In this document: one piece after another, positions 5,830 to 41,400 of the stretch
How the letters are laid out: each line of letters opens with the position of its first letter
Numbering within the stretch: position 1 is the first letter of the stretch
Made by a program: the position numbers and the translations under genes
Notes under the pieces: generated by a model
What the model saw: only the letters and a program-made list of their open reading frames with translations
What the model was told of the DNA's origin: nothing
Database searches by the model: none
Assembly: GCA_964016885.1 (NCBI GenBank)
Contig: OZ024744.1
Location: forward strand, 108,686,001 to 108,750,000
Source: Eledone cirrhosa
Lineage: Eukaryota
Direction: 5' to 3'
Length of the DNA: 64,000 nt

Positions 5830-6201
<372 letters not shown>

Positions 6202-6340
6202 GGATAAGAAAATACGAAGTAGTTTCAGATGTTAAAATTCTTCATTGATAAGGCTGTGATACATATTACAATAACGACAGTGGCCACGCATCAATATTTG
6301 CTGTAAGCATATATATATATATGTTTAAACTCTTATGATA

Positions 6341-6915
6341 TAATTGCCGAATTACCCGCGCCTTGCTGCGTTTCACATATTTTTTGTAAGAAAATGATGA
6401 TTGATTTTAAATCATTGATATAATTTATGGAGACAAACTCTGCATTTCAATATTACTCAACGTAAAATGTAATGCATGAAAAATTGGAAAACATTATTTT
6501 TTGTAATATATCAAATCAAAATTATGTTATTAAATCTTATTCTTATTTTGTTTCTTGTAAATAATTATTTTCAAAATATCAATTCAAAACTTTTGTGACT
6601 AGGTGTCATATCTTGTTATTTACCTATGATTTTAATTTCATATAAATTGAAGGGAAAACATTTTCAGCGGGGTTTGTGCCCCCGGGGAACCCTAATAGAG
6701 GGTTTAACCCCCATTAGGGTGTCTTAATATTATTGAAATTTGCTGAAATTTTGTGAATAGGCATCATATCTTATCATTTACCTATGGTTTAAATTTCATA
6801 TAAATCGAAGGGAAAACATTTTCGGCGGTGGTTTTCAGCGTAACTCAGAAGATCCCGTTAGGGTGAAAGCAGCGATTCTTTGCTTAAACTTTAATCTGTT
6901 ATTTTAATAAATATT
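6341..6915 (-). mobile_element. Probable non-autonomous Helitron
   Basis: Minus-strand 3' end CGCAGCAAGGCGCGGGTAATTCGGCAATT resembles the 21955-21981 terminus. The ~70-bp end (6845-6912) is shared with 13145-13212. Internal duplication present. Confidence 0.45.
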
Positions 6916-6980
6916 TGCTCTACGGTTCTTATATATTTGATATATATTTATCCTTTGGATAAATATATATCAAATATATA

Positions 6981-7580
6981 AGACCTTAGGCTATTGTTTT
7001 AGAGTAGTGACAGTCTCACTTACTTTAATTTTCAGCAAACAGGGGAGATAAAGCTGACAGAGCTCTGTTTCGCACTTTTTGGTGCTTATCAAAGCTAACT
7101 TCTCCTCCTGTTTGCTGAAAATCATGAATATTGGATTTTTATAGAATTCTAGTAATAATCAAGAACTGATTATACAGAGCGGTTGCCGGTCAAGCAGAAA
7201 TTGAAAATTAGAATTGGTGCTCTGAAATAGCGATATATATATGAATGTATATATAGTGTATTTTGCAATACACTGTATGCTTAATTAAAAGCATTTCGAA
7301 GACCTTATGCTATTGTTTTAGAGTAGTGACAGTCTCACTTACTTTGATTTTCAGCAAACAGGGGAGATAAAGCTGCGCAACAGAGTGCGAAAAAGTGCGA
7401 AACAGAGCTCTGTCAGCTTTATCTCCCCTGTTTGCTGAAAATTAAAGTAAGTGAGACTGTCACTACTCTAAAACAATAGCATAAGGTCTTCTAAATGCTT
7501 TTAATTAAGCAAACAGTGTATTGCAAAATACACTATATATACATTCATATATATATCGCTATTGCAGAGCACTAATTCTA

Positions 7581-7581
<1 letters not shown>
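6981..7581 (-). mobile_element. Non-coding ~319-bp hammerhead-bearing repeat: direct copies 6981-7299 and 7300-7375, inverted copy 7385-7581
   Basis: AGACCTTA..CTATTGTTTTAGAGTAGTGACAG at 6981 and 7300; reverse complement at ~7450-7490. Confidence 0.8.
7029..7121 (-). ncRNA. Type I hammerhead, U3:A8 variant, long stem I
   Basis: Minus strand: TTTTCAGCAAACAGGAGGAGAAGTTAGCT-TTGATAA-GCAC CAAAAA GTGC-GAAA-CAGAGCTCTG-TC-AGCTTTATCTCCCCTGTTTGCTGAAAA. Confidence 0.8.
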
Positions 7582-7620
<39 letters not shown>

Positions 7621-7621
<1 letters not shown>

Positions 7622-7835
7622 GGAACGATCGACTGTCGTCAAATTGGACCGAGGAAACAATGTTTCCGTCGGTCTTTCCAATTGCTAATACTATCTATCG
7701 GTCGCAACTCCAGATAGAAGGAGCAACGTGAAATAAAGTGTCTTGCTCAAGGACATAACGCATCGCCTGGTCCAGGAATCGAACTTACAACCTTACGATT
7801 GCGAATCCAATTATCTAACCACTCAGCCACACGCC
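7621..7835 (-). mobile_element. tRNA-derived SINE with a CORE-like domain
   Basis: A/B boxes (TGGCTGAGTGG, GTTCGATTCC) and TGTCCTTGAGCAAGACACTT; second copy at 14625-14840. Confidence 0.75.
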
Positions 7836-8151
7836 TTCACAATATTAGAAACAAAAATCAAGGTTACCAACTTATATTCAGTCCTTTATTTCTACATCCG
7901 TTTCATGTATTTGCAGGATGTTTTTTTGTTCTTGAAATCTTGTGAGGTTAGTAAACCTTATTTATGTTTGTTTTTTTTATAATTCCCCGAGGATATGACG
8001 GTTGTAGGTAATATGTATATTGTAGTTATCTGTTAACTAATAATTTCCAGTTGTTCTGCAAATACATGAACCATTATAACTGCATTGGAACAGACGTAGA
8101 AATAAAGGAGTGAGTTAAGTTGGTATCCTTGATTTGTTTCTAATATTAAAT

Positions 8152-8810: not shown

Positions 8811-9905
8811 TTGAGATGGAAGGTTTGTGGTTTTTTCTCACATCTGTTTGGTGTTTGAATGTTACTTCTGTTTTATATGGAAAAAAGTGGCTCGAAAGCC
8901 AGGTTTTTAGAGAAGTAATTTGGTTGGTTGATGACTGTCATGTGAATAAGTATAATAAATTTCGCGCCAGTTCACGTTACACAGTTCTTATTATATTTGC
9001 CTTCAAAAAAAGAGGAGGCTCAGATTGTTTTTTCATACATGAGTGAAGTTTGGTTGGTTGATGCAGTCACGTGAATAAGCACATCAGCTTTCGCGCCAGT
9101 TTGTGTTTGAATTTCTTTTTACTTAAAAAAAAAGTGGCTCACAAAGGCTTTTTTTTATAAATGTAATTTGATTGGTTATAAATGAAATTATGATTGTCAC
9201 GTGAACAAGTACATTAAATTTCGCGCCCGTATTTTGGAATTCGACCAACTAAATGATTTCAAAATTTAATTAACGGCATCAATAACCACATCCAATTCAC
9301 AATGGAATACAGCCAAGATCAACTCCCATTTCTGGACATCTTAATCATAAAAAAGGCACAAATATTGAAACTGACATACACTACAAACCAACAGATTCCA
9401 AACAATACCTGCTATTCACCTCCAACCATCCAAAGCACAAAAGACGAACATTCCTTTTAACCTAGCAAGAAGAATTTCCACAATTGTCTCCAATTATGAA
9501 ACGCGAAATAAAAGACTTCAAGAATTAAAGGAAATTCTGCTCGAAAGACAGTACCCACCATTACTAATAAATAATGGAATAGAAAGGGCTAAACCAATAG
9601 GCATTGATGAATTACGAAAACAGAAACAAATTCAAGGTACGTCCAATATTCTATCATATATCTCAACACACAACACAAAGAAATGCGGAAGCTTACAACA
9701 TTATTCACAATTTCATCCCACTATTGAAACAAGACCCAAGAAGGAAAAAAGCTCCTGAAACACACAAAATAATCAAAAGCAAAAGACAACCGAAATCACT
9801 GAAAACATTACTCACCAATGCCAAATTACCATAAACCCACAACCAGCTGTCAAAAAATGTGGTCGCTCTAATTGTGGAACCTGCACTCACCTCATTGAAG
9901 GCAAC

Positions 9906-10253
9906 ATGTATATATTTCAATCAGGACAAAATTTTGCTGTAAAAAATCATTTCACTTGCTCATCAAAAAATTTAATTTATGCCATTAAATGTAAAGGATA
10001 CAATGAAGATTATATAGGACAAATTAAACTCACACTCAGAAACAGAATGACAGTTCATCGCCAACAATTACGAGACCCTACCACAAGACAGATACCACTC
10101 AGTGCACATCTAGACATATGCGCAAGTAATAAGACACCCAAATTCCAAGCCTTCCCATTTTATCTTTGCGCTGACAATACAACAGAACAAATACGAATAA
10201 ATAAGGAAAATATGTTTATTCAAAAATATAGACCAGCATTAAATATAGTTTAA
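9906..10253 (+). pseudogene. PLE GIY-YIG endonuclease fragment
   Basis: LIYAIKC...YIGQ...R...H...H...E...P.LN pattern. Confidence 0.85.
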
Positions 10254-11072
10254 TATACATTATGTCAACATCATAACATGCTAACCATCCAAACAGACAC
10301 ATACATACACACATTTTCGAAAATAAAAACCAGAACTAAATAAACCTTAACATACGTTAATACTCTAACACCTTAACATACTAACCACACACCCCACACA
10401 CACATAACTCCCTCCCCCATTTCTACTAACGGAATCATTTTCCTACACACACAAAAATATATATTCTCTCCATCTTAACATGCTAACCATACTCCCCCAC
10501 ACACATAAAACACTCATACACACACACAACTCCCTCCCCCATTTCTACTAATAGAATCATCTTCCTACACACACACACACACACAGACACACACACATAC
10601 ATACACCAGCACACAAATAAACATATATATATCTACTTTCTTTATTTAGAAAATCTGAAATTTGACACCTCAGCACATCAGCCATATTCACTGAACCAGA
10701 ACAATTCTCCTCATCCCGTTTGTCTTGACCATTATCTTTTGTTTGGCGCAAAATTCTCTAAATGGCTACAAAAAAATTCCAAAATACGGGCGCCAAATTT
10801 AATGTACTTGTTCACGTGACAGTCATAATTTCATTTATAACCAATCAAATTACATTTATAAAAAAAAAGCCTTCGTGAACCACTTTTTTTAAAGGCAAAT
10901 ATAATAAGAACTGTGTAACGCGAACTGGCGCGAAATTTATTATACTTATTCACATGACAGTCATCAACCAACCATATTACTTCTCTAAAAACCTAGCATT
11001 TCGAGCCACTTTTTTCCATATAAAACAGAAGTAACATTCAAACACCAACCAGATGTGAGAAAAACCACAAAC

Positions 11073-12779: not shown

Positions 12780-13212
12780 TAGTTAGAATTTTAGTCTACG
12801 ACTTCAGTTATGCCATTTACTTAGTTTTGTCTTTGCGTGCAATTGTTCTCCACGCTCCACATATGACGTATTATCTTCGTTTTTTTTCGTTCATTGCCAG
12901 CGAACGTCTCTATGAACCACCTAATAGAATATTAGCCTACGACTTCTTTTATACCATAAATGTGGTTCTGTCTTTGCGTGTAATTGTTTTTCACCGCTCC
13001 AAATAATGACGTATTATATTCGTTTTTTCCCGTTCTTTGCCAGGGAACGTTTCCACGAACCAAAGTATCGTCTTCCTGTCTTCCTCCGGTTGCAACGTTT
13101 TTTGAAATATTTACTTCTGCGTTTACAGATTGACTTTGTTAGTTTCAGAAGATCCCGTTAAGTGTGAAAGCAGCGATTCTTTGCTTAAACTTTAATCTGT
13201 TATTTTAATAAA
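12779..13212 (-). mobile_element. Probable non-autonomous Helitron with a ~140-bp internal tandem duplication
   Basis: Body is a reverse-complement homolog of 21120-21335. One end is shared with 6845-6912. CTAG at 12779-12782. Confidence 0.5.
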
Positions 13213-13233
13213 TATATATATACATATATCTAT

Positions 13234-22764: not shown

Positions 22765-25203
22765 CAGGGTGACCGTAGCTTTTGTGGGCTTTCTTCCCGA
22801 ATAACCCTCAGTGGTCTCCCTCCTATTGGGGATTGTTCATTTGTTTCTATTTTGTTACATCTTTTGCTTTTGTTTCTCTTTTTACTCACAGAAACCCATA
22901 TTTGTACCGTTCTGTACCGTTCTGTACCGTCCTTAATGTATTTTTGTAAACCCTTTGTGGCCTACCGTGGCTCTCGACGACGGAGACGGAGTGCTGTGAA
23001 GGGCCGATAACTGCTGCTGAGATACACGAGACAATTACTAGCTGCATGAGGGTAAATCGCATGGTTTGGATGGTCTACCCTACGAACTTTGCCAGACTTG
23101 TTCAGCGACCTCTTGGCAGACGGCTGTTACGACTGACAGCAGAACGGGAGAATTCACAGCTTTGTCGAGCGAGCGGTGGCGCTGCTGAGAACGAACCCGA
23201 ACAAGGGGGCCAACATAGATAATTTCAGGCCCATAACTCTGCTAAACGCAGAGTTCAAGATTTTGGCCAAGGTGCTAACAAAGAAGTTGGCGCTTGTCGT
23301 CGGTGGTCTAGTGGGAGGCGCAAACACGCACCATTCTGGATAAATGCATCCACGACAACCTCCACCTCATACGATACATCGTGGAGAGGGTAGCTAAGGA
23401 ACCTGGCATGGATGGGGCCCTGGTCAATTTAGATCCAACGAAAGCATTAGATAGGATCGACCATGAATTGCTGGCGGCGGTCCTGACGGCGGCCGACTTT
23501 GGACCCGTTTTCAGAGGGTGGGTCGCTGCTATGCACAGCGACATCTGCTCTGTGGTGAGAGTGGACGGTCACCTTTCGGAACCGTTCAACATCATGCGCT
23601 CGGTCCGCCAAGGATGTCTCCTCTCGTCCCTGTTGTACGTATTGACTCTCGAGCCATTACTGCACAAACTGGAGATGTTGAGGGAGGTCCCGCGCGAACT
23701 AGGATTTGGGAGAACCGTGTCAGCGTATGAAGACAATATCACCGTAGTGGTGTCGAGTGCCAAACACATCGAGGCGATCGGCACCACACTAAGAGAATAC
23801 GAGGCGGTGACAGAAGCAATGGTAAACTATTCAAAGTCTGTGGGCCTGCAACTCGGCGCCTGGAGAGGCAGGTCCATGCCGTCCAACAGCGTCGTCGGGT
23901 GCTGGACGGACGGACCGGTTAAATTTCTAGGGGTCTGGTTCGGTCCGGATCTCCAGACGGACAAAAGCTGGGACGAGGTGACGAGTAGGGTGGCCTCTCA
24001 TCCAGAAATGGACCGAAAGGAATCTATCACTGAAAGGTCAAGAGGAGGTGGCCAACGCGTACATCGCGTCCGTCATCTACTACCGCCTGGCCGTTGTGCC
24101 TTGTCCTAAGCCTCACCTGACTGCACTGGAGCGTTTGCTCTTTCGCTTTTTGTGGAAGGGACGTACTCCGATGGTCAGGGGTGGTCCATTTGCTGTCAGC
24201 ACCCGCTACGTCGAGGGCTGGGCATACCGTGGCCGATAATGCGCAAACATGCGCTCAGGCTACGGCATCTCCACCTCTTTCTCGACGGTGATCAGGTGTG
24301 GTAGCCCATTGCTAGACGCGTTTTTCCCCAACTCGTCTCCTTGGCCGAGCTGCAGTCCTGGCTCAAGCGAGGCCGAGAGGGAGCGCTTGGAGATTGGAAT
24401 GTCTTCAGGCGCTCACAGCCCTCGACCGATCGGGCAATGCGATCGGTGGAAACTCCACCTTGGCGTTCTATAGAGGGTTAGTGGAGGGAAAGAGCGACGA
24501 CGTACTTGGATAGACTCTGGGCATCGATGATGAAAATCAACTAGCCAATCTCTTCGGGAGACTTTCGGGCCAGGGCACATGGACAACTTCCAGAAATCCC
24601 TGGCCTGGCAGTGCTACCGGGGAGCTTTGCCAGTTCGGGATAAACTCCCCAGGCATGGAAGTACCATCAGCCGGACCTGTCCGAGATGCGCACTGGGTGA
24701 CGAAACCGTCCTGCATGCAATTGTTAAGTGTCCGAGCATTGCTGACTTGTGGGTTTATGTTGAACACCTGGTGTCACGTGTAGGGCGGATCCGGCTATCA
24801 GCTGAGTCCATCGTGAGGATTGCCCCGTCGTCTTCCTTTAGCCGGGAAGGGCAAGCAGTTTTTATCTGTAAAATCAGGGTGGAGGGGGAAGAGCATTTTG
24901 TTGAAAGATGGGTGAGAGAGAGACAAGCATGGCCCGAGTGAATGGGCTTGCTCTGACTATGCGCTTGTAAATTGCAAGTGGAACCTGGGAGAGGGCACTT
25001 TCCCTGGTGGCCATGGCTTTTTTAATGAGCTTTCTCCACGAGTATCACTCAAAAGTCTCCCCTTATTGAGGAATTCTCCTTTGTTTCTTTTTTTGTCATT
25101 TCTTTTGGGTTTTTTTTCCTTTACACGCAGAAATGCCCATTTGTACCCTCCTGTACCGTCCTGGGCTGTCCTGGGTGTCCTTAATGTTATACTTTATGTC
25201 AAC
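22765..25203 (+). mobile_element. L1/Tx1-like LINE copy 1 (RT to 3' UTR), preceded by a 3' UTR fragment of another copy
   Basis: NFRPITLLN, KA.DRIDH, SVRQGC.LS, AYEDN (decayed YADD), CPRC..ET..H...C zinc-binding motif. Confidence 0.85.
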
Positions 25204-27502: not shown

Positions 27503-30500
27503 ATGGCCGTATTAAGAGTAGAAAGTTTAAATGTTCGAGGCCTGGTATCGTCCTGGAAGCAGGGTCACCTGCTCAACGACTTCAGGTCTCTAGAAATGGA
27601 TGTAATTGCCGTCAGCGAGACCAGGACTTCCGACACGCTCGCACTAGCCCCAATTTTCGAAGACTATCAGATCTTTGCATCTGTTAGTCGGCCGGGAATG
27701 GGAGGTGGGGTGGCAGTGCTGTTTATGAAAGGCCTGGATCTCGAGGTAAGGTCAATCTTCCGGGACCCGGACGGGAAGTTGGTGGTCCTGGACGTGAACA
27801 ATAACGAAGGTGGTGCCTTTAGACTGGTGGCCGTCTATGCTCCTACTGTGGCAGGACGGCCGGACTTCTTTAGACGCCTGGAAGCCTTTCTGGTTACGTC
27901 TCGCCCTTTACTGTTAGCGGGGAACTGGAACGGCATCTTAGAAGCACGCTGGGACTGTGTGGGAGTACCCGATAGGAGCGGGGGTGCAAAAGCCTAAAGA
28001 ACCTTATCAGCCAGTTCCAACTGTCTGACAGGTACCGACTAGATTTCCCTAATGCGCCAGTGTGGAGCTGGACTAACCGCATAGAGTCATCTAGATCATA
28101 TATAGACAGGATTTTCATTAGGAAAATAGACAGAAATAGTGTAAGCTGTCCACGTTTTGAAACGGTCGCCTATTCAGATCACAAGTTTGTGATCTGTATG
28201 GTCGACCTAGATAAGACGCGTAGGTTAGGACCTGATTACTGGAAGCAGAACATGTCATTTCCGGCACGTAAGGCTTATAGGGACCAGGTCAACAATTTAG
28301 TTAAGAAAAAGTTGACAGGGAAAGTCGTCAACAATAGATGGTAGGGGGCTCTCAAAAGAGAGATTAGAGTAATGTCGATAGAGTTTAGCAAAGAAGTAGC
28401 ATTAGAGAAAAATAGAAAGGAGGGGGAGTTGGTAGATAAGTTAGACGAGGCTATCGGTAGTGGCATTGCAACTAACGTGTTAGCGGCGAGAATGGCATTA
28501 GACCATTTCTTCAATGCGAAACACGAAGGTTGCATTGTCAGAGCTAAGGCGCGTGCTCTGAGAAACGAGGGAACCAAAGCTGTTCGATGGGCCCACGTGG
28601 CGGAGGCGCAGCGTGGTAATAAAACCACGATTCAGTCTTTGACGGACCGAGACGGGCACGAGCTGAGCGATTCCAAGAGAGTGTGTGAGGCCTTTCGCCA
28701 ACATTTTGCTCGGTTGTTCGGGGGAAGTGTCGGGTCAGAGACGGTGGAGGACTTCAATCCCTAACTCGATGGCTTGCCGCAACTGTCTACGGCCGACGCT
28801 GGGCGCTGCGAAAGGCCGATTACTTCAGCCGAGATTCAGGATGCCCTTGACGGCTGCATGAGGCGCAAGTCACCCGGTTTAGATGGTCTGCCCTACGAGC
28901 TTTACGTAAATATGCCAGACTTGTTCTCTAATCTCCTCGAAGCGCTCTACAGCAACTGGCAGCAAAACGGGAGTATTCCCAGTTCTGTGAGCCGGGGCGT
29001 AGTGACGCTGATAAGGAAAGACGAGAACAAGAGGGACACATTAGACAATTTCAGGCCCATAACTCTGCTCAACACAGGTTTTAAGATTTTGGCCAGGGTG
29101 TTAGCGAAGAGGTTGGCGCTTGTCGAGTATTTGGTGGTGGTGGTGGGGGGGGGGGGGGGGGGGGGGGGGGGGCAAACTTGCGCAATCCCAACCAGGTCCA
29201 TACACGACAGCCACCACCTGATGCGATGCATCATAGAGAGAGTAGGGTGTAAACCTGGCTTCGGTGGGGCTCTGATCAATTTATATCAATCGAAAGCATT
29301 CGATAGGGTCGACCATCGATACCTGGATGCTGTCCTCAAAGCAGCTGGCTTCGGCCCTGTCTTTAGAAGCTGGATCTCTGCAATGCACAGCGGCACCTGC
29401 TCGGTGGTCAAAATTAATGGCCACCTCTCGGAACCGTTTCAGGTCTCCCAATCGGTCCGTCAAGGGTGCCCTCTCTCCTCCCTTCTGTACGTATTGACTC
29501 TCGAGCCTTTACTGCGGAAGCTGGAGCTGTTGCAGGGCATCCCACTCGAACCGGGGCGCGGAAAGGCGGTGTCGGCTTATGCAGACGACATCATCGTGAT
29601 GGTGTCAGACACCTCAGAAATCGAGGTGGTCGGCAACTTATTGGAGGAATATGAAAGGTTGACGGGATCAAAACTTACCCGGAAAAGTCGGTGGGCTTGC
29701 AAGTCGGAGACGAAAGTCCATGCCGTCCAACAGCGTCGTTAGGCGCGGGAAAGACGGGCCGGTAAAGTTGCTCGGGGTTTGGTTCGGGCCAGACCTCCAG
29801 GTGGATAAGAATTGGGACGAGGTGACGGGCAGGGTAGCCAGTCTCACCCAGAAATGGACTGCGAGAAAGCTATCACTGAAAGGTCGGGCGGAGGTGGCGA
29901 ACGCGTACATCGCGTCCGTCATCTACTACCGTCTGACCGTCGTCCCTTGCCCCCGTTCGCACCTCGCCATCTTGGAGCGGCTCCTCTTCAAATTCTTGTG
30001 GAGTCGTCAGGTTCCGTTGGTGAGGCGGTCCATCTGCTTCCAGCACCCTCTACGTGGAGGGCTGGGCATGCCGTGGCTAATGATGCGCAGACACGCGCTG
30101 AGTCTGCGGCATCTCCAGATATTCTGCTCAAGCTGTGAACAGGTGTGGTCGCCGTTTGTCAGACGGGCCTTTCCGCAGCTCCTCTCTTTGACTGAGCTGC
30201 AGTCCTGAGTCAAGAAGAGACCGAGACTGGGTGACTGGCATCTGTAATGTTGCCAAGCACTCACTTCCCTCTACCAGGCGGGCAATGCGGTCGTGGAACT
30301 TCCACTCTCGAGTTCTATAGAGGATTAGTGGTGGGCAAGTGCGACGACGCATTTGGAGAGGCTCTGGGCGTCGACGAAGTCGAACTAACCAGTCTGTTCC
30401 GGAGGACTTTCGAGCCGGGGACGATGGATAATTTCCAAAAATCCCTCGCCGGTTCGAGATAAACTCTACAGACACAGAAGTGCTGTCAGACGGACCTGCC

Positions 30501-38440: not shown

Positions 38441-41400
38441 CGCCCCCTGATCTCAAGGATCAATTTCCCCCTCGTCCTTCTGCATATGAAAGTCTGCTGT
38501 CCAGGTTGATGGTTTGCGACTTCTTTGCCATCTCCCCAGTGTTGGGACGGCACTTTGGGTTTCCTCTTCCTCGGAGTCCGTTGACACAGTGATTCTACGG
38601 ACATCCATGACATGACGTGGTACTCCGTCCACGGACACATTGTTCTGGGAATTTACGGCCGTCACCGTTCCCCTTCCCCATTGAGATGTGCAACGTGCAT
38701 CTGGGGGCTTAACCCAGACTTCTTCGCCCACCTGCACGAATGCATTCTCTCTCCCCACTGGCCGTTGTGGTGGCGTGCACGGGTGCCGCCACTCGTATCT
38801 GAATACTGCTCTGTGTGGCACTGATTCCTCAACCTGTCCCACCCGAGGGGACATGTTGTACCAGAACACTGCCTCCATTGGTGAGATATGACCCCACTCA
38901 GCCATTGCCTTGTTCATCCGGTGGTGTCGCTCCACAATTCCATTTCCGCTCAGCCTGTACGCTGCTCTGAAGAAACGGTCCACCTTCCATCCATCGAGCA
39001 TCTCCCTCAGCGCCTCCTAGCTGAACGCTTCGCTGTTGTCCATCAGCAGTTCGTCCACAGGGCCCCGCTCCAAGAACACCTCTCTCAACGTCCGCATGAT
39101 TTCCTCGGCTGTTCCAGTCTTCATCTCCCTCCATATCGCCATCCGTCCCAGTCCACAGTTGACCATCGAGAGGTACGTTCCCTGTCGGTAGTGTGTTACA
39201 TCCACCGCCAATCGCTTCCAGTCACGATCCACCGGGAGGCTTCCCGTTTCGTGCACACCCGGGGCGGGATCAATGGACTGACATCGGACGCAGCCTCTAA
39301 CCCCCCCCCCCCCCCGAACACTGTGTCTGTTAACGTCCGAGTCGATTCTCCTGGCTAGGAACAGAGTCCTATCCACTCCCATGTGGTGCATGTCATGCAA
39401 CCCTTTCAGATCCAACTCGGCCAGCCCACACATGGCAGCTATCTCCTCTTCTACCTCCTCCGGCGCTTCCATCCAGGCTTTCTTCACCCTGGTTAAGACG
39501 TCCGCCCTATTTTTCTCTGAGGGCACGAAAACTACGCTCAGCCTCAGGTCGAACTCGGTGGCCAGCTTTCCTAAAGTTCCCAGGCGGCGCTTTATCAGCA
39601 TCTCCGCCGCCCCTCTCGTTCGCACTCTCTTCTCACTGGTGAGCACTGATTTCACCCATCCGAGTACAGTAGCCGAGTCGGTGCGTATCTCGATGGTGCG
39701 CAGTCCCCACCTCAGGGCGAGGTTCAACACTCTCAACACCGCGTCCAGCTCGGCCACATTGATGTGGTTGCAGTCGTCCTTCTTCCTAAGCCAGGCTGCA
39801 TCCTCTTCTTCCTAAGCCAGGCTGCATCCTCGACCTCAACACCTCCTATCTCCAACGTGACACCCAGCGCTATGCTGCTGGCATCGCACGATACGGTCCC
39901 GCTCTGCAATTTGGGAACATACTAGCGTCCCCGCACTGGGTCGTCGGCCTTCACCCTCTCCACGATCTCCTGCACCATGGCCACCGTCCTCTCTCCCACT
40001 CTGTTACTCCAAGTCACTCCTCCCACTCGTCTCTTGACATAGCTGAATGCCGTCCGGAGCCACCCAGCAATCGGGTAGTGACCCACCAACTTTCCACACA
40101 CCGAGAAAAGCTCCCGCCTACTCATACTTGGGCCCAGTTGTGGAACTTCATTTCCGCTCTGGAATACCAAGACGCCCGTCCTGTCTCGCCGTAGCCTAAG
40201 TCCCAGCGCGGCTCCTCCCTCCAACGCTTCTGACGGCTTCGCAGCAAGTCCATACCCCTGTAAATGGCTCGTGACCTCCGCCGCCGACACTACAAACTCG
40301 TCCACTAGGATGTCATCAATGTAGGAATTAGTGGCCTTCTTCATCTTGTCGGCCTTTCCCAGAATGGTCTTGAGGACCACCACCATGATCTTCGGTGCGG
40401 AGCTCAGCCCGAAACCGAGCCTGGTCAGGCAATATGTCCGGCCCTTATACCTGACCAGCTGATTCTGCCAGAGCTTCTCATATATATGCAATTGCAAGTA
40501 TGCCGACTTTAGATCTACGATTGCGGAACCCCCCGTCATGCGTCTCCACTCACGCATGGTTTCCCCACAGACATCCATGACCTCGCCACCCGTATGGCAT
40601 GACACGTGCTCGTTCAGCTCCCGAAAGTCCAGTACCGGCCTCACCTTGTTGTTCGTGGGTTGCGACACCGCTATTAACGGCAATACTCCGCACTTCACCT
40701 CCTCTTTCCAGGGAAGCAGTATGCCCTCCTCAATCCATCTCTCTACCTTTCACTCGAACTCGCTCCTAATGTCTCCCTTCAATGTGTGTTGATAGCAGCC
40801 CACTTTGGTCTTCAGTGTTGGTGGTTCTCCCTTCCAGTACCACTCAACAACCCATCGCTGCCCAACGAACACGGCCTTGAAGTCTGTCCTGCACAGTGTA
40901 AGCGGGGTATTTCTCCTCGTGGGCCTTCTGGTTCTCCTGTCGCGTACTCACAGCGCATACCGATGCAGCGCCGCCAAACAACACACCGACGTTGTTCAGT
41001 GACGCCTCCTCGACGGCCAATTACGTCCATGCCCATAACTACGCCGATCCCATCCACCACGTTGTCAACTACGATGGCAGAAAGCCTTATTTTCCTTCCC
41101 CGTACTGCCATCTCCACCTCGCTGCGACCTCGGCATTCAATTTTCCTGCCGTCGACTGCCCTTACACTGCTCTTCCCTCTCCACCTCTGCGCCACCCCCG
41201 CGGTCACCAGTGTCGTCGTACAGCCCGTGTCCACGAGGGCTCGCTGTGGCTTTCCCCTCACGAAGACTTTCACCACGGGCAGCGCCTCTACTCGTAAGGG
41301 GCAACTACCGGCGCAGTAGTTCCCCTTGGATCGTTTCCCTGGTCGCAGTTAGTAGCGATGTGGCCTGGTCGCTTACACCGGTAGCATATTATTTCCGGCC

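Follow-up and report, generated by a model that had tools for sequence, protein, structure and literature searches.

Metazoan non-LTR retrozymes consist of tandem units of 150-450 bp and low GC content with a type I hammerhead in each unit (PMC7229834; bioRxiv 10.64898/2026.07.22.740005, in the text available for both). The element described here shares these properties, as it does the lack of a protein family, and Penelope-type mobilisation has been proposed for the known retrozymes in the accessible parts of those sources, as it is here for the present element. Penelope-like insertions, as far as the available text of PMC8557442 goes, share with our element the partial tandem copies, a tail of 30-40 nt confined to one end and, at the 5' end, an inverted copy that is 5'-truncated, and also two internal start sites and (TA)n or other microsatellite targets (available parts of PMC8557442 and PMC11167929). 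According to the accessible text of PMC11167929, purified Penelope protein cleaves and extends both strands, starting at two internal sites; for Anolis, the same text reports that cleavage was dispensable in vitro and that none of the RNA-seq reads had its end at the hammerhead site. The hammerheads of Penelope-like elements cut poorly in vitro according to the available portions of PMC4209133 and PMC11167929, and we found no assay of a U3:A8 ribozyme in those of PMC6765202 or PMC3088659. Descriptions of the element class, of the U3:A8 core and of the inverted layout already exist.

In the 64-kb stretch of Eledone cirrhosa DNA that we analysed (the window), a 319-nt mobile repeat carrying a hammerhead motif is present as a single head-to-head insertion in a (TA)n tract (Table 1). 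Unit positions 1-319 are numbered along the plus strand and the RNA sense is the minus strand. The direct copies at 6980-7056 and 7299-7375 (77 nt) are 97% identical, as are the inverted arms at 7207-7375 and 7414-7582 (169 nt). The inverted arm has an intact cut site at 7414/7415, without the 5' half of the ribozyme, and terminates inside (TA)n at its canonical 3' start. On the left, at 6980, the start is non-canonical, and a snap-back duplication stands in place of the left arm's canonical 3' end. On this side the element is bordered by a very high-copy repeat of 158-nt period (window 6588-6955 and 13150-13215), which has a (TA)n-flanked end at 6914 and in the other contigs compared usually continues differently past 6955. 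Neither a spanning piece nor an empty allele was found in the four contig sets compared with the locus, and a target-site duplication is unreadable within (TA)n targets. The GC content is 0.30 at 6001-8000, and no stop-to-stop frame of 120 aa or longer lies between 6248 and 8666.

Table 1. Features of the retrozyme locus, in window positions
Feature	Position	Strand	Basis or remark
Full 319-nt retrozyme unit (unit 1-319)	6980..7298	-	Period from direct repeats, and many full units of 95-97% identity elsewhere in the genome
Predicted type I hammerhead, U3:A8	7052..7096	-	Structure scan and covariation in 191 copies; cut predicted between 7056 and 7055
Second unit, 5'-truncated (unit 1-77)	7299..7375	-	Predicted cut, between 7375 and 7374, is within the range of possible breaks (after 7373, 7374 or 7375)
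Junction patch of two short inverted-arm copies	7374..7392	+	TG, AG and AAA microhomologies as links
Inverted arm, unit 101 to 1, then 319 to 228	7390..7582	+	Outer end is the canonical 3' start (near unit 228)
(TA)n microsatellite, usual target of the family	7583..7621	.	Sequence; most outer ends of other copies also lie in (TA)n
27-nt inverted (snap-back) duplication of the neighbouring repeat	6927-6953/6957-6983	.	Overlaps unit 1-4 by 4 nt

Other mobile sequences are found in the window. A head-to-head pair of an unrelated repeat occupies 1343-2351, with 390-nt arms that are 92% alike and, at ~2100-2140, a hammerhead-like C3:G8 core with a palindromic stem III; this pair probably represents a second retrozyme-like family. 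A Penelope-like remnant at 8823-11072 comprises a GIY-YIG domain (9759-10250) between inverted arms of 129-138 nt tandem repeats, and a search of it with a loose pattern found no hammerhead core. Reverse transcriptase remnants (PF00078) lie at 23312-24106, 28765-29739 and 39922-40746, the last also containing DUF7047.

The hammerhead motif consists of stem I AGCU/AGCU, the core UUGAUAA at 7092, stem II GCAC/GUGC, GAAA and a palindromic stem III, which places the predicted cut between unit 77 and 76. It is the one complete hammerhead found by a structure scan of both strands of the window, where ten Markov controls together gave 1 match; Rfam at its gathering score returned no match in the window. 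Among 191 ungapped copies the core positions are 94-100% conserved and 185 copies have the U3:A8 pair. At two stem II pairs, C-G and U-A replace each other (42 and 26 of the 191 copies). The core is also conserved in a sibling family of 316 nt and 83% identity, in which stem I is GGCC/GGCU, with both sides changed. Since the copies are related, these compensatory changes reflect few events. A conserved core, three helices, a 3-8 Watson-Crick pair and compensatory stems together identify a putative type I hammerhead of the Penelope-type variant. The cut-to-cut monomer is predicted to fold well below its shuffles in energy (z -7.8), and to favour a non-hammerhead local fold (-20.6 versus -8.3 kcal/mol), which counts against cleavage.

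An exact 35-mer from near the 3' end has 2,534 matches in the 3.0-Gb genome, so that the family numbers at least 2,534 matches. Judged from its sequence, the family is a non-LTR retrozyme found mostly as head-to-head pairs in (TA)n, the known Penelope-type layout. Fetched loci were decomposed by jumping alignment, and an unbiased set of 171 locus ids, some overlapping and with their ends deduplicated, was drawn from the first 100 places of the 35-mer search and the first 100 of 207 of a second search. Excluding same-direction jumps (29) and small indels (23), this set provided 258 5' ends, of which 197 belong to head-to-head inversions and 61 run into flank. Scored ends were available for 148 of the sampled locus ids, and 98 of these have the head-to-head arrangement. 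Its 99 junctions fall at all unit positions, and 79 of them have two canonical outer ends, a 228-class start being paired with a 254-class (254-264) start in 73 of the 79; at the window locus the left start has been lost. Of 698 diagnostic sites, 43 disagree between arms of the same locus, compared with 36.5% for random pairs. Junctions prefer 2-5 nt of microhomology, and 45 of 98 contain an insert. The ends of paired arms are uncorrelated overall (Spearman -0.06), with 7 pairs within 10 nt of each other versus 3.4 after shuffling, and no one-molecule rule that would tie both arm ends together in general was seen.

Tandem units of the 319-nt period are found genome-wide, and the sibling family forms tandem arrays of up to 7 units (L339, L314, L335; G000:C1). 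One sibling 25-mer has 2,360 matches, some of them from the main family, and the sibling break rate is lower, at 0.19% per base. One retrozyme array is interrupted at its TA tract by ~1.6 kb with matching inverted ends (L061:2760-4362), which looks like a DNA transposon insertion. Penelope-like protein remnants occur in 6 of the 378 fetched locus ids, none arranged as pLTR-ORF, and no autonomous partner sharing the pLTR or the 3' end was identified among these 378. In a single case (L178:1-1930; G000:C4:341998727-342001746), a retrozyme arm that ends at unit 62 meets a Penelope-like copy head-to-head across a short patch; this copy is 5'-truncated and shares 85% identity with window 9605-10584. 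This chimera hints that the two arms of an insertion may derive from different RNAs, and it names a candidate partner family.

A sequence-only reading of the window locus had noted that the second copy stops within 1 nt of the predicted cut and that a patchwork and an inverted copy, whose start it put in stem II, follow. Both observations stand with small refinements. The last matching base of copy 2 is 7375 (unit 77), and as 7374-7375 (TG) also fit the next patch, the true break is at unit 75, 76 or 77, a range (7373-7375) that includes the exact cut. The patch is templated from the inverted arm: 7374-7385 corresponds to unit 95 to 84 with 1 mismatch, 7384-7392 to unit 97 to 89, and the inverted arm then resumes from unit 101, in loop II. 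Each step of the patch begins in 2-3 nt of microhomology. Taken as one event, the coincidence of break and cut (3 of 319 positions, ~1%) is weak evidence within a family of thousands. The maximal match of the window copy is to unit 77, where end counts stand at baseline, and this single copy is therefore no proof of ribozyme activity; by a rough estimate, a share of 0.39 of the unit-77 ends spills over from the peak at 76 described below. That in vivo cleavage lies behind this particular end is a tentative attribution, and we lean against it.

The same reading went on to explain the inverted copy by one reverse transcriptase that ran off the cleaved 5' end and then switched template. The range of the break would suit such a model, and the patch can be read as three rounds of microhomology-primed copying from the end of the direct arm. 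The inverted arm is RNA-sense, however, so that its template must have been cDNA, and its outer end, in (TA)n, is a canonical 3' start; moreover, inversions are found at all positions, regardless of whether an arm ends at the site. We regard the template switch as very improbable and abandon that part of the earlier proposal. The inverted arm continues across a site that is uncut and begins at a 3' start of its own, so that two priming events followed by microhomology joining are the likelier origin. Fold-back on an arm's own cDNA was also considered as a general source of inversions. It needs a 254-class arm that ends nearer the 3' start than the 228-class arm, and it was ruled out because 41 of 74 junctions have a 228-class arm that is shorter than its partner.

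Ends in the unbiased sample are scattered across the whole unit, with a mean of 0.32% per base. Only 4 of the 258 fall at unit 75-77 and the top bin, with 6 ends, is unit 62, which counts against cleavage. Among paired arms there are 164 read-throughs of the site versus 2 stops within 1 nt of it. A broad excess of ends is found at unit 57-63 (window 7036-7042; 19 of 258 in 7 nt), immediately ahead of the G-C-rich segment in the long hairpin, and is possibly a strand-displacement stall.

Six positions (62, 75, 76, 77, 89 and 117) were counted genome-wide with 17-mers that end at the chosen position and are followed by two non-consensus bases; each match was inspected and its junction was classified by eye. 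Ends within an inversion or in flank were taken as true ends. Same-direction jumps do not enter the peak counts, since a number of them represent deletions, either across the hairpin of stem III or from one AGCT repeat to another. The jumps from unit 75-77 excluded in this way were 6 of 21 matches in the 4-G subfamily and 1 of 12 in the 5-G subfamily, and 5 of 9 in the sibling family. Same-direction jumps from the cut site that skip stem III or more are seen in L124, L125, L130, L133, L136, L163 and L346-L348; repeat slippage and jumps across a cut RNA look alike in such cases. True ends made up 15 of 21 matches (4-G subfamily) and 11 of 12 (5-G subfamily) at unit 76, 2 of 4 at unit 75 and 3 of 7 at unit 77, the window copy among the last. 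The corresponding numbers were 11 of 13 at unit 62, 5 of 11 at unit 89 and 9 of 21 at unit 117, where three are partners of a 76 end. Among units 75, 76 and 77, for which anchor numbers are nearly equal, 15 of 20 true ends lie at 76 (P 1.7e-4, or 1.7e-3 with microhomology weights).

For fold values, matches were restricted to loci holding the exact sampling motif, and the denominators were estimated from 79 locus ids on one contig. On this basis unit 76 has 15 arms in 13 loci versus 3.3 expected, an excess of 4.5-fold by arm and 3.9-fold by locus (P 4e-5), while the neighbours 75 and 77 stand at 0.8-fold. Microhomology alone, in a model fitted to 98 junctions, would give 1.13-fold at 76. The observed value is 1.5-fold at unit 117, which has the same AAGCT end, and 0.5-fold at unit 89, the end at the 12-nt palindrome. 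Unit 62, where there is no cut site, reaches 3.3-fold genome-wide, and non-cleavage hot spots of comparable size therefore exist. The sibling family has 4 true ends among 9 matches, in 4 loci versus 2.1 expected, and this 1.9-fold excess is not significant (P 0.16). The breakpoint histogram that had been suggested as a check on cleavage is thus borne out in the position of the excess, ~4-fold and one base wide at the predicted site, and not in its size, the peak being small among the unbiased ends. We consider in vivo self-cleavage the probable cause of the peak at unit 76.

Both arms end at unit 76 in 9 of 19 inversion loci from two targeted searches (L138, L140, L356, L357, L360, L361, L364, L366 and L367), whereas elsewhere symmetric junctions number 1 of 97. 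Three of the nine (L357, L360 and L367) have a mismatch or an internal deletion in one arm, and eight have the usual two starts. Copying of these loci from one master was rejected, as their flanks differ except for repeats common to L353, L364 and L366. In L153, L156, L160 and L167 the partner arm passes the site and extends as far as unit 115-117, which argues against cleavage.

The same two-armed element could acquire its 76 ends without cleavage, by pausing of the reverse transcriptase in the long hairpin or at a protein-bound ribozyme, combined with joining favoured at AGCT. Ends are indeed dense along unit 41-68, and the excess at unit 62 arises with no cut at hand. The AGCT palindrome, which is able to self-anneal, joins 6 of the 9 symmetric loci and also the three 76/117 loci; fold-back ends are seen at the 12-nt palindrome (L374, L376 and L377), and the sibling family, which is without the AGCT palindrome, shows only its modest excess. 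However, the peak at 76 is one base wide and coincides with a site predicted beforehand, and the microhomology model accounts for little of it. Unit 117 shares the AAGCT end yet has no symmetric junction (P 0.017), and unit 89 has no junction with two canonical arms. In L138, moreover, two arms that both end at 76 are separated by a 31-nt T/A insert, without microhomology, and in the sibling locus L349 both arms likewise end at the site around an insert. A stall before the helix would be expected at unit 77-81 rather than at 76. Pausing and joining are, on this evidence, an unlikely source of the peak.

A central deletion in a longer palindrome after insertion could also have produced the window junction, which would then be silent on reverse transcription. 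Long inverted repeats are unstable, a snap-back rearrangement is present at the left end of this very locus, and such deletions could yield the 76/117 joins. Against this, stabilising deletions would not make perfect AGCT-centred palindromes such as those of L140, L356, L361 and L364, nor would they single out one base at the cut site, and we consider this origin extremely unlikely.

We therefore return to two priming events and microhomology joining, with self-cleavage of a minority of templates. In the model that we propose, a Penelope-type reverse transcriptase would prime from both ends of the (TA)n target, with a start near unit 228 for one arm and a start at the internal (UA)n tract (254-264) for its partner, and the two cDNA ends would be joined by microhomology-primed patch synthesis. 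Most of the template RNA would be uncut, multimeric or circular, so that synthesis usually reads through the ribozyme. A small share, ~1.5% per pass as estimated from the fold excess, would be self-cleaved, and synthesis on it would run off the 5' end at unit 76. The left arm of the window locus may be one such product, its template a multimer in which only the 5'-most ribozyme had cut, and the right arm would have stopped at about unit 101 of an uncut unit. As a whole, two-armed Penelope-type insertion with a small self-cleaved share of templates behind the 76 ends is, in our judgement, fairly likely. The balance tips slightly towards a genome that preserves a fossil record of U3:A8 cleavage, with ~1/70 templates cut and with some insertions in which both reverse transcriptases ran off cut 5' ends. 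In the palindromes centred on the cut site, both run-offs may possibly have come from the same RNA molecule. The earlier suggestion of a genomic fossil of run-off at a self-cleaved 5' end thus finds its backing in the family-wide peak at 76 and much less in the copy for which it was made.

If the peak stems from cleavage, cleaved linear RNA sometimes served as a germ-line template, most templates being uncut or circular, and breakpoint histograms would then offer a general, sequence-only assay of ribozyme activity during retrotransposition. The strict pairing of the two 3' starts on opposite arms constrains the mechanism of head-to-head insertion in its own right. Our literature search, in the text available to it, found no report of Penelope or retrozyme 5' ends that peak at a hammerhead cut, and no mapping of 5' ends against the cut site was found in the accessible parts of PMC7229834 or bioRxiv 10.64898/2026.07.22.740005.

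The locus differs from described non-LTR retrozymes in that its family occurs mostly as short head-to-head pairs in (TA)n and has a U3:A8 core, and it is known from sequence alone. Unlike Penelope-like elements, the retrozyme has no protein-coding part, and the one-base excess of ends at its hammerhead site differs from Anolis and its lack of RNA-seq ends there (PMC11167929, available text). The minimal U3-A8 hammerheads of Schistosoma mansoni (Cercyon), as presented in the accessible text of PMC4209133, share with ours the core covariation, a palindromic helix III predicted to act as a dimer and opposite-strand motif pairs 100-700 bp apart. In comparison with Cercyon, the motif described here has a 4-bp stem II without a bulged base, a longer palindromic stem III and a long hairpin that extends stem I, and it is part of a non-coding unit. 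In the R2/HDV and Perere-3/twister elements, 5' genomic junctions at the cut have likewise been taken as evidence of in vivo cleavage (available text of PMC8501958). The cut sets the normal 5' end of those elements, whereas here it would be a minor exit from a template that is mostly read through.
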